Shown: positions 18,807-21,800 of the stretch, piece after piece
Numbering within the stretch: the stretch's first letter is position 1
Layout: every line of letters starts with the position of its first letter
NCBI GenBank assembly: GCA_944392795.1
Contig: CALXXX010000037.1
Span: 601-64,600, forward strand
Reading direction: 5' to 3'
Length of the DNA: 64,000 nucleotides
Source: an uncultured Alphaproteobacteria bacterium
GTDB taxonomy: Bacteria; Pseudomonadota; Alphaproteobacteria; CAAHEQ01; UBA3637
Position numbers and translations under genes: made by a program
The notes under the pieces: generated by a model
Seen by the model: the letters and a program-made list of their open reading frames with translations, nothing else
What the model was told of the DNA's origin: nothing
Database searches by the model: none

Positions 18807-21800
18807 TTAGAACAATTCCAAAGAAGAGGAAGAACTACCTCCTCCTGGCGTTGTCACTTGCTGTTGTTGTTGTAAAGGCGTTGAAATTCTCTCTGCCTGT
18901 TCAGATGAAGGATAAGAACTTAACCCTTGCTGAGAATTATACAATTCTTCTAAAGTCGATGGGCGTCCACCCGAGGAAACGGATTGAGAGCTGGTCGGTG
19001 TAGGCTGATAAAGCGTTTGTGTCTCATCAGCTTGATTGGTTCCGATTTCTTCCTGTGTCTCACCCTCTCCTGTATATCCAGGATCATAATATACCTCATC
19101 TGCTGGTGCAAATGTGCTTTGATCAGGAGAAGAAATATCTGCAGTAGAAGCAGCTCCTCCCATCGAACCGCCTACCGGACGCTTAGCCATTCCATATTGT
19201 TGCCCTGGTGTCCTAGCCTCAGTTGTATCTGCACCCATCTCAGCCTCATAATCATCAACATCATCTTCTTCTGTCCTCAACCATAAATCCTCCATAGCAA
19301 AGATGGTCATCCTTGTACCTGCCGGAACAAAAACAACTGGCGGAGTAGAAGAAGATTCCTCAATTAACTGATTAAAAATCATTTCCATATCATCAATAAA
19401 ATTCTCACGAGCTTCTTGAGCTGCCTGTGCACGATCGGATTGAGAAGAAGTGCCATAATTTTGATTTTCAGTTACAGTTTCATCAGAAGCGACCAAATAG
19501 CTAATTGCCGAAACCATTGTAGATTGTAAGATTGGTTTACCATAACGTGCTAAGAACATTTCATCCAAATAAGCAGCAACACCTCCACGACCTTGAGCGT
19601 CGCCAGAAATCGCTTGAAGTGTAAAAGAACCACCATCCGGACGAATTAATCGTTCCCAAGAAATCTCCAATTTAGCGACATGATTTGTTCCAGGACTTCC
19701 TGTTACAGAACCTATAAGCTTACTACCCGCAGGAATAATAATATTCCGACCATCTTCTGCATAAACATGACGTTCTACAATTGCCGATGCTGGAACAGAC
19801 ATATAACGACTGTCAATTGAACGCTGTAAAACAGCAGGAATAGCTTTATCTTTTAGTATCATTCGGCTCATATCCACAGGCCAAGAAGAAACCGTTTTTG
19901 AGCCAAAGTCTTTAGCTTGTTTTTTCTTAGCTCTAGCCAAGACACGACCATCTGGTGTAATCTTAGATAGTTTTGAACCAATTCCCTGTTTCATTCCTTC
20001 TCTGCGCTTTGCTAATAAATTACGCATTTGAGCGGCCTGTTCGGGAGAAAATTGAAGGATTTCTTGACCTGTAAATTTCTGATCAGAGCCTGCTCTTAAC
20101 TCATCCGCCAACAAGTTATTAGACAATGAATAAGGAACACCATTTTTTAACTGACCAACCACAGCTCCTGTCATCGGATTAATAATAGAATTATCTGGTA
20201 AAACCATAAATTCTTTATCTCCGATAGCAATCCGACGTCCGCCTAAATTTAAGCCTCCAGCACCAAGACCTGTTCCTTCCAATAAATTACGTCCAGATAC
20301 AAATCCTGTCGCGCCGCTTTCAGGAGACCATCTCCCTATTATATTACCATCTGGGCCATATAAAACGCCGTCTCGTAATGTTCCTATGACATTTCCATTC
20401 AAGTCACGAATGACTCCGTTAGCATCAATTGTTCCAATTAAATTGCCATTCGCATCATAAACATAACCGCATTTAATTGTATAAAGAACTTGACCTTTTT
20501 CATCGCGAATCGTCCCATTATATTGGGCATTCATACAATTATCATCTGAAGTCCATTTCCCTATAATGTTACCGTCTGGATCTAATAAATTACCATTTTC
20601 ATCTATACGACCAATTACATTTCCATTCAAATCACGAATGACCCCATTAGCATCAATTGTTCCGATTAAATTGCCATTTGCATCATAAACCTTACCACAT
20701 TTAATTGTATAAAGTAACTTACCACTGTTATCATGAACAGTTCCATTATATTGAGCATTTAAACAATCCAGAGAATCTGGAGACCATTTTCCAATAATAT
20801 TCCCATTTGCATCAAGTAAATTGCCATTTTCATCTATACGGCCAATGATATTACCATTCAAATCACGAATAACACCATTTTCATCAATCGTTCCAATTAA
20901 ATTGCCATTTGCATCATAAACTTGTCCACATTTAATTGTGTAAAGCAAATTACCTGCATTATCTGTAACAGTTCCATTATACTTACTATTAACACAAGTA
21001 TCATCGCCAAACAATGTTATACTTCCATCTGGATTAATACGACCCCACGGTTTTCCGTTAATCATAATCGTACCATCTGGCAACACTTCACCTATTTGCT
21101 CACCATTCGTATTATAGACTTTACCATCTTTAATATAGCCGATAATATTACCATTTGCATCATACAGATAATTCGGCATTGTCGTAATTCCATTTTTACC
21201 TACTTTACCAATAATATTACCTGCATTATCGTAAATATTACCTTCATCATCAATTCGTCCGATGATATTGCCATTTGGATCATAGAGCGTACCATCAGCA
21301 CCTACGGTAAATAAGTGCTTTCCTTTATTATCAAAAACACGACCGGCTTTATCCATTGTCCCCATAATTTTGCCATCTTCATCAAACAGCAATTGTTCCT
21401 TTTTCAAATCCATTACACGACCGATCACATTACCTTCATTATCTACGACAGTACCATCTCCTAACACTTTGCCGATTACTTCGCCTTTGCTGTTAACAAC
21501 TTGACCGTTTCGTAGTACTCGACCAATGACATTCCCATTTTCGTCAACAACGATACCGCGTTTTAAAACTTTACCTATTACATTACCGTCATGATCGATA
21601 ACCGTCCCATCAAACAAAGAGCAACCGATAGAAACACCACTGATATCTACAACATCAGCGTCTGGTAACGTCCGTCCAAGAAGTGTTCCATCTTCAGCTA
21701 TAACTGATCCTTTTTGAACAACACCTCCGACATTGGTTCCATCAAGAGATACGGCCGAACCATCTAAGTTCAACACAGCTACTACTTGACCATTTCCATC

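Follow-up and report, generated by a model that had tools for sequence, protein, structure and literature searches.

The window analysed here, a stretch of 64,000 nucleotides (nt) from an uncultured alphaproteobacterium (contig CALXXX010000037.1), carries on its minus strand a gene for a giant homologue of the secretion protein VirB10, in which three tandem units, here called U1, U2 and U3, form the end of a longer repeat array ahead of the C-terminal domain. An earlier reading of the sequence (the original prediction) had taken these units for a hotspot of in-frame expansion and contraction of the kind that generates phase or antigenic variation. Our analysis indicates that they are probably three paralogous β-flower domains, each with a pair of Cys residues, which make up an old and fixed structural element rather than a switch. 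The gene and its parts are distributed as follows (aa, amino acids; ORF, open reading frame).

18807..26138, minus strand: giant VirB10 homologue of 2443 aa, an ORF with Pfam matches to Bflower_2, Bflower, DUF3659 and TrbI
26013..26081, minus strand: hydrophobic N-terminal segment (aa about 20-42, IFLLIGVLALLVFLVALFIISQG), presumed inner-membrane anchor, read from the translation, with a topology presumed from canonical VirB10
20310..25451, minus strand: whole repeat array (aa 230-1943), with a 17-residue hairpin periodicity and Pfam matches on all sub-segments
20766..20996, minus strand: unit U1 (aa 1715-1791, 77 codons), four-hairpin β-flower module with Cys1715 (20994-20996) and Cys1737 (20928-20930); Bflower_2, 40.6 bits
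20538..20765, minus strand: unit U2 (aa 1792-1867, 76 codons), with Cys1792 (20763-20765) and Cys1814 (20697-20699); Bflower_2, 41.4 bits; subject of the single-unit AlphaFold2 model
20310..20537, minus strand: unit U3 (aa 1868-1943, 76 codons), with Cys1868 (20535-20537) and Cys1890 (20469-20471); Bflower_2, 34.9 bits, and Bflower, 30.3 bits
19860..20309, minus strand: non-repetitive linker (aa 1944-2093) from the last module to the TrbI domain, conserved across homologues
19278..19859, minus strand: TrbI/VirB10 C-terminal domain (aa 2094-2287); Pfam PF03743, 108.7 bits (cut-off 35), 4.2e-31
18810..19277, minus strand: acidic, Ser/Thr/Gln-rich, low-complexity C-terminal tail of 156 aa (aa 2288-2443), the most variable part of the protein

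The presence of three tandem repeats inside virB10 was borne out by two repeat searches, and the identity of the gene is supported by its TrbI domain. Tandem Repeats Finder placed an array at 20386-20981 with a period of 231 nt, 2.6 copies, 82% matches and a score of 754, and a 51-nt period nested within it; the second search found three copies of 223 nt at spacings of 228 and 231 nt, which are 82% and 66% identical to the middle copy. In protein register the repeats occupy 20310-20996 of the minus strand as three in-frame units of 77, 76 and 76 codons within a single ORF, as had been proposed, but the proposed length of 231 nt and 77 codons holds only for U1 and the first spacing, since U2 and U3 have 76 codons and the second spacing is 228 nt. 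Nor are the units near-identical, as they had been described: nucleotide identity is 79.7% for U1/U2, 73.6% for U2/U3 and 68.8% for U1/U3, and the longest exact runs shared by these pairs are only 26, 17 and 20 nt, respectively. The final hairpins of U3 are the most diverged among the three units. Two Cys per module had been noted and are found in every case, one at the first residue of the unit and the other 22 residues on (1715/1737, 1792/1814 and 1868/1890).

Each unit is made of four 17-residue hairpins and a 9-residue joint containing Cys, and is predicted to be an autonomous, eight-stranded β-flower domain. The AlphaFold2 model of U2 alone (model m62ade125997f), built with an alignment of 31 units, has eight strands, a predicted local distance difference test (pLDDT) of 95.0 and a predicted template-modelling score (pTM) of 0.81. 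The three-unit model has 24 strands and a per-unit pLDDT of about 80-90 with a pTM of 0.40, which indicates confident domains of undefined mutual orientation, in the manner of independent beads. Searched alone, U1 and U2 pass the gathering score of Bflower_2 (38 bits), and U3 lies below that cut-off and above the one of Bflower (25 bits). The hairpin tips read DNAG, DANG, DLNG and DENG, which fits the [DNEQ]xxG tip motif of the four-fold β-flower, an arrangement of eight strands in hairpin petals within a fold whose families have 8, 10 or 12 strands as four to six petals (PMC10584680). In a Foldseek search of the PDB, the single unit had a match of borderline significance, to a β-domain that is inserted in the sialidases NanI, NanJ and NanA (best for 5tsp_A, with a query-normalised template-modelling (TM) score of 0.53, a root-mean-square deviation of 2.9 Å over 66 columns, 27% identity, a probability of 0.97 and an E-value of 0.047), and the three-unit model resembled the shells of Rhs, Tc and teneurin proteins only locally, in its hairpins (TM at most 0.12). 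The original description of the β-flower reported no PDB similarity (PMC10584680).

Both Cys were present in 47 of 47 units from 21 proteins, and in a second module type the two are shifted together. An invariant pair is compatible with the disulfide that had been suggested for each module, although the bond itself is deduced from this conservation, and we think that each pair probably forms a disulfide staple. Eight Cys pairs stand at conserved positions in VirB10 and are, in our reading, compatible with an oxidising compartment, the membrane topology being itself presumed. Pairs 134/146, 198/201, 402/475, 554/627 and 1433/1506 of the window's protein recur in homologues down to about 30% identity, and several pairs of the array are spaced by 73 residues, approximately one four-petal module, a pattern that suggests disulfide-closed modules throughout the array.

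The three units close, next to the TrbI side, a far longer array of about 100 β-hairpins in approximately 1700 aa, and a unique region of about 190 aa separates this array from the hydrophobic segment. At lag 17 the autocorrelation identity rises to 0.213, the mean being 0.082 (standard deviation 0.024), with further peaks at 34, 51 and 68, and the whole protein matches Bflower_2 with 385.4 bits in 17 stretches and Bflower with 161.7 bits, in addition to DUF3659. A PDB sequence search of the repeat region matched no solved structure, and the C-terminal 500 aa match (phmmer) the solved chains of ComB10 (2bhv, 3.1e-17), VirB10 (6gyb), CagY (8cb2), TrwE (7o3j) and TraF (3jqo). The order VirB8-VirB9/CagX-VirB10-VirB11 is syntenic in relatives, and the gene is a VirB10 homologue in a VirB-type operon.

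Within the window's own clade the array is unchanging. Conspecific contigs were recovered by exact look-up of the adjacent VirB11, and two further relatives (L008 and L006) by a scan of species-representative genomes, all of them by routes other than the protein homologue search, whose best match was 63% identical. All four conspecific sequences are 7332 nt long with three units each; L011 and L012 have 99.96% nucleotide identity to the window over the gene, and L010 has 99.39%, with 45 substitutions of which four alter an amino acid. L008 (89.0% identical in nucleotides, 95.8% in amino acids) and L006 (78.8% and 91.7%) both have units at residues 1715, 1792 and 1868, positionally orthologous to those of the window, and the only indels in the gene occur after aa 2339. 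Against L008, the synonymous (dS) and nonsynonymous (dN) divergence of the orthologs is 0.55 and 0.018, respectively, with a dN/dS of 0.041 for the array (array dS 0.51); against L006, dS is saturated, dN is 0.043 and the array has a dN/dS of 0.020. The array is therefore under strong purifying selection in this lineage. The variable tail is 80-87% identical to that of L008, against 95.8% protein-wide, and holds every indel among close relatives, so that an exposed segment in rapid evolution is more plausibly sought in the tail than in the repeats.

The age of the triplication can be read from the divergence among the units themselves. Between the window's units dS is 0.71-1.09 and dN/dS 0.19-0.25; these dS values are Jukes–Cantor-corrected and may understate saturation in an AT-biased gene, and a comparison of identical codons with the codon-usage expectation was added. 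In L006 the units are 65-78% identical in amino acids but only 65-67% in nucleotides, their longest exact run is 10-11 nt, and their identical-codon fraction, 0.36-0.43 against an expected 0.43, is at chance level, whereas the window's units reach 0.60-0.73 against an expected 0.53. Because paralogs compared across genomes (window U1 and L008 U2, 0.76) are as similar as those within one genome (0.73), gene conversion has left no trace after the window's lineage and that of L008 separated. The triplication is ancient, with synonymous sites between units at or near saturation, and the copy number is fixed at three in the clade.

Few long identical tracts remain on which recombination could act. 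There are seven exact direct repeat pairs of at least 16 nt in the 7.3 kb of virB10 (0.95 per kb), six of them within the array, over a background of 0-1 per 7.3-kb chunk of the window, and at thresholds of 12, 14 and 16 nt all pairs are separated by a multiple of three and hence in frame. The gene is AT-rich, with a G+C content of 0.25 at third codon positions (GC3), and the likeness of the units in DNA is largely that of conserved protein motifs written in AT-biased codons, the shared hairpin motifs YDANGNLIGTID and IRDLNGN lying behind the stretches that appear identical. Homologous recombination in bacteria requires roughly 20-30 nt of perfect identity and drops steeply with divergence, so that an array with so few long identical tracts is a poor substrate. 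Slipped-strand phase variation was rejected, since the units of 228-231 nt are not short simple-sequence repeats and every change keeps the frame. A plus-strand ORF at 20922-21314 (130 aa) was also rejected as a gene: it is an antisense read-through of the repeat, and the signal of selection lies in the minus-strand frame.

Two kinds of variation were nevertheless observed among the conspecific sequences, neither of them in the number of units. The position concerned by the first is the following.

20439..20441, minus strand: codon 1900 (Leu, TTA) in U3, a TGA stop in conspecifics L011 and L012 (change at 20440), accompanied by I1904V at 20429

The TGA allele occurs in two independent assemblies (L011 819-8150 and L012 819-8150), L011 having a coverage of only about 3.8x. 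It would truncate VirB10 before TrbI, giving a product of 1899 aa and possibly another of 531 aa, and could be a naturally occurring allele that is split or has lost its function. The second kind concerns L010, whose substitutions relative to the window are clustered, with nine in a stretch of 50 nt and ten in another of 170 nt (gene nt 1640-1688 and 6755-6920), nearly all synonymous; judged by their distribution, they look like short imported recombination tracts.

Outside the clade the picture is different. The protein homologue search returned 174 homologues of 1598-2484 aa, and the family comprises at least 174 clusters at 90% identity, from uncultured Alphaproteobacteria; an overall length of 2100-2480 aa is maintained down to 30% identity, which argues for a constrained architecture. 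Cys-stapled modules, counted in 120 homologues, are carried by 18 (one module in four, two in eight and three in six) and absent from 102, and a four-copy form (P0135) exists as a cluster member. P0001 and P0011 are 98.0% identical and differ by a 158-aa gap exactly at the module position, where other clean gaps, likewise of one or two units, were seen in P0004/P0010 (80 aa), P0009/P0007 (74 aa), P0003/P0006 (73 aa) and P0017/P0018 (79 aa). The 90%-identity cluster of P0001 includes six sequences of 2428 aa with three units and nine (P0121) of 2350 aa with two, the three-unit and two-unit genes having 93.3% nucleotide identity; since the exact runs between their units do not exceed 38 nt, and the contig names, of SPAdes and MEGAHIT (k141) style, point to longer k-mers, collapse of the repeat is unlikely in this case. 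The one-unit and four-unit forms are less secure and may be effects of assembly: the former comes from a k=31 Logan assembly, and its two-copy counterpart has a 38-nt exact run between units; the latter has a 108-nt exact run between units. Among the 18 clusters at 90% identity that were inspected, two contain a one-unit length variant, and no variant of unit size was found in the remaining multi-member clusters. At least 11 changes of copy number are required by parsimony on a 28-tip neighbour-joining tree of the first 1600 residues.

The sequences of the modules also bear the mark of their lineages. All three units of the window read GVIRDLNGNxIG where other type-A lineages have GNMYDLNGNYMG, and the first and last units retain the positional signatures NSK... 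and NAQ...; residues that are specific to a lineage and common to its units point to duplication or conversion after the lineages had split. P0002 and P0135 have modules of the 'CxNAKYNG' type, yet their first 1600 residues group inside the clade of the 'CKKYDG' type (P0003, P0005-P0009), which hints at mosaic genes whose module region was exchanged between lineages. On a wider scale, U1+U2 as a phmmer query against 1.84 billion representatives gave 694 proteins at E ≤0.001, and sampled matches of 804-914 aa and 1973 aa have β-flower repeats and a C-terminal TrbI domain. Because the short and long proteins sampled share both features, β-flower arrays of varied length constitute a recurrent VirB10 linker, in proteins that span from about 800 to about 2480 aa.

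Unequal exchange of modules is thus a real, slow process in the family, and one that has not taken place in the clade of the window during the time covered by the sample. The in-frame gain and loss of modules foreseen by the original prediction did take place in relatives, with zero to four copies and with two- and three-copy forms at 93% nucleotide identity, but not in the clade of the window; the absence of copy-number variation among related genomes, which that prediction had itself named as the observation that would count against it, is what was seen within the clade and not what was seen in the sister clades. The idea of a hotspot did not survive, given the same three units in six of six genomes of the clade, the 0.95 exact repeats per kb and a dN/dS of 0.02-0.04. 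Phase or antigenic variation is likewise opposed by the strong purifying selection, the fixed copy number in the clade and the scarcity of identical DNA repeats.

In the explanation that we favor, the array takes the place that a short, proline-rich periplasmic linker has in canonical VirB10, following the presumed membrane anchor and preceding the TrbI domain. By analogy with canonical VirB10, it would lie in the periplasm as a scaffold or spacer from the inner-membrane anchor to the outer-membrane core. The three units would be at the TrbI-proximal end of the array, presumably the outer-membrane side, their periplasmic Cys pairs would be bonded, and the modules would have arisen by in-frame tandem duplication, that is, by unequal recombination of neighboring modules, so that the length of the array could be adjusted by duplication and loss. 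Several observations weigh against this explanation. Copy number is polymorphic between lineages that are merely 2-7% diverged, which indicates change on shorter time scales than the clade suggests. The identical-codon fraction of the window and L008 units taken together (0.60-0.75) is above the expected 0.53, and some DNA-level homogenization may have occurred in their common ancestor. The species of the window is sampled by four sequences only, all of them short-read assemblies; a metagenome scan with the C-terminal 744 aa returned a single locus, already known, and no further conspecific sequence. Finally, the role of scaffold is drawn only from the topology of VirB10 in other systems and from the conserved Cys pairs.

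The alternative closest to the original prediction is a contingency locus similar to that of CagY, in which frequent in-frame recombination within populations or hosts would serve antigenic variation or a secretion rheostat. VirB10 homologues with recombining repeats are indeed known in CagY (PMC2194252; PMC3585145), size variation has been described for DotG (PMC6761968), and in our data all repeat pairs of at least 12 nt are in frame and one, two, three and four copies occur in sister lineages, some within one 90% cluster. Nevertheless, cagY has 43-52 identical DNA repeats of at least 16 nt per kb, which rearrange within hosts (PMC2194252), against the 0.95 per kb found here, where the units are only 69-80% identical with an inter-unit dS of 0.7-1.1. 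Three orthologous units occur in all six genomes, an ortholog dN/dS of 0.02-0.04 speaks against diversifying selection, length variants of one unit were restricted to two of 18 inspected clusters, the one- and four-copy forms may be assembly effects, and the predicted location of the repeats is periplasmic; we consider such a locus improbable. An artefact of assembly is scarcely credible: tandem repeats are a classic source of misassembly, but units that differ at 20-31% of positions allow reads to be placed uniquely, and the same triplication was obtained in six independent assemblies, including that of L006, in which no run between units exceeds 11 nt.

Two other proposals concern what the units are rather than how they change. 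They could be modules that bind a ligand of the periplasm or envelope, such as glycan, peptidoglycan or lipid, with copy number tuning avidity, a role compatible with that of a scaffold and suggested by β-flower relatives annotated as cell-wall binding and by the Pfam clan shared with the lipid-binding Tubby proteins (PMC10584680). The best solved match of one unit, the inserted β-domain of a sialidase (5tsp_A), could be taken in the same sense, but its Foldseek E-value is merely 0.047. To our knowledge, no ligand site is known in that inserted domain, and on balance ligand binding seems unlikely. The hairpins could instead wrap into a cocoon, as in Rhs and Tc toxins, without forming separate domains. 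Petals and YD repeats have a YDxxGN motif in common, there is a weak match to the Pfam family RHS_repeat (38.4 bits for the whole protein and 21.5-25.9 bits for single units), and Rhs, Tc and teneurin proteins are the top Foldseek matches of the three-unit model. However, the TM-scores of these matches are very low (0.08-0.12 to Rhs proteins), no RHS stretch passes in the full protein against the 385 bits of Bflower_2, the period is of 17 residues, and a lone unit is predicted with confidence to fold as a closed domain (pTM 0.81), all of which renders an Rhs shell very improbable.

The old, fixed array of β-flower domains that we favor is embedded in the following secretion genes.

17805..18794, minus strand: VirB11-type ATPase, immediately downstream of virB10; Pfam T2SSE, 6.7e-21; synteny kept in relatives
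26168..27838, minus strand: VirB9/CagX homologue, immediately upstream; Pfam CagX, 3.8e-12
27931..28695, minus strand: VirB8 homologue; Pfam VirB8, 9.7e-16
28717-28935, minus strand: lipoprotein-like ORF of 72 aa (VirB7-like), upstream in the same cluster
28979-29599, minus strand: second VirB8-like ORF, of 206 aa, upstream in the same cluster
32010-34481, minus strand: 823-aa protein with a match to a VirB5-type domain (PF07996) at aa 516-657

Neither VirB4 nor VirD4 was detected anywhere in the window. The cluster is flanked by housekeeping genes such as folD, rsmA, surA and lptD, and is therefore chromosomal. Beside the operon, at 2218-17762, about eleven ORFs of up to 839 aa have no match in Pfam or NCBIfam, except for a regulator with two helix-turn-helix domains at 12351-13292; some of them (483/486, 496/500 and 839 aa) are syntenic in conspecific contigs and related genomes, and the ORFs might supply the secretion system with accessory components or with substrates. 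Elsewhere in the window, a single ORF of 1078 aa (39505-42741, minus strand) comprises an LptF/LptG permease (aa 6-355) and LptD (aa 411-1014). At their junction (...KEQSPQQKRSKK-MISLLFLVFFFLAFSVEAAEP) an in-frame Met and a stretch resembling a signal peptide follow the permease without an intervening stop codon, so that the ORF represents a true fusion or else a pair of genes in one reading frame.

In a broader reading, β-flower arrays would be evolvable material, not recognised before, for the periplasmic linker of VirB10, and the Cys modules on the TrbI side the currently active growth zone, their number (0-4) setting how long or how stiff the connection is between the inner- and outer-membrane parts of the machine. 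We hold this to be possible but doubtful. If it were true, the number of modules might be polymorphic in some species and act as a functional rheostat similar to CagY, and naturally occurring alleles that truncate the protein, the TGA at codon 1900 among them, would offer another way to turn the system off. A repeat whose copy number changes over evolutionary time has to be distinguished from one that works as a fast genetic switch; only the former is supported here. The β-flower VirB10 family appears to be undescribed; in the literature searched, there was no paper linking VirB10 to the β-flower or DUF3659, and no relevant paper on VirB10 of gut alphaproteobacteria. In type IV secretion systems VirB10 is the subunit that extends through both membranes, and CagY and DotG, the two known cases with a large repeat region, are central to the construction and regulation of the machines of the respective pathogens; the present locus is a third, structurally different solution to a VirB10 with large repeats, based on the β-flower, and gives that fold a defined molecular context.

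Among known systems, the locus is akin to CagY and DotG in architecture, with β-hairpin domains as repeats in place of helical motifs or pentapeptides. CagY of Helicobacter pylori is also a very large VirB10 homologue (approximately 2000 aa or more) with long modular repeats before the TrbI/VirB10 domain and with modules lost and gained in frame, but its repeats are α-helical A (38-39 aa) and B (31 aa) motifs (PMC3585145), and the repeat regions of the two proteins have no sequence relationship, only their TrbI domains matching each other. The array described here has β-hairpin domains, a copy number fixed in the clade and strong purifying selection, and it departs from CagY in both defining features that could be assessed, the density of identical DNA repeats (0.95 per kb) and the existence of size variants within one species, as all four conspecific sequences, a small sample, measure 7332 nt. 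DotG (IcmE) of Legionella and Coxiella likewise combines a C-terminal TrbI domain with central repeats of variable length, and its size differs between species and strains (1011 and 1161 aa in L. oakridgensis; PMC6761968); it differs from the present protein in having pentapeptide repeats, against a 17-residue period and modules of about 76 residues, and in belonging to a type IVB system, whereas the operon described here is VirB-like.

Canonical VirB10 proteins, such as VirB10 of A. tumefaciens, TraF of pKM101, TrwE of R388 and ComB10 of H. pylori, share with this one a hydrophobic N-terminal segment, here a presumed anchor, the TrbI domain and the place in the operon between VirB9 and VirB11. 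They measure some 380-480 aa, and their linker, which runs through the periplasm from the inner-membrane anchor to the outer-membrane core, is short and rich in proline, in contrast to the 2443 aa, the repeat array of approximately 1700 aa and the low-complexity tail of 156 aa found here. The sialidase domain (NanI 5tsp, NanJ and NanA) is the closest solved structure to one unit, at 26-27% identity, but it is inserted in a β-propeller enzyme, an unrelated context, and its borderline E-value of 0.047 makes it a lead and not a membership. Rhs/YD-repeat proteins are set apart by the autonomy of the modelled unit, by TM-scores of at most 0.12 and by the lack of any passing RHS stretch in the full protein. 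With the β-flower families PF21784 and PF21785 the units share the hairpin petals, the [DNEQ]xxG tip, the four-fold, eight-stranded version of the fold and the Pfam matches themselves; the description of that fold was based on proteins that stand alone, are small (about 100 residues) and include lipoproteins (Durairaj et al. 2023, PMC10584680), whereas in this bacterium about 100 petals are concatenated in a subunit of a secretion system, whose terminal modules carry a Cys pair.

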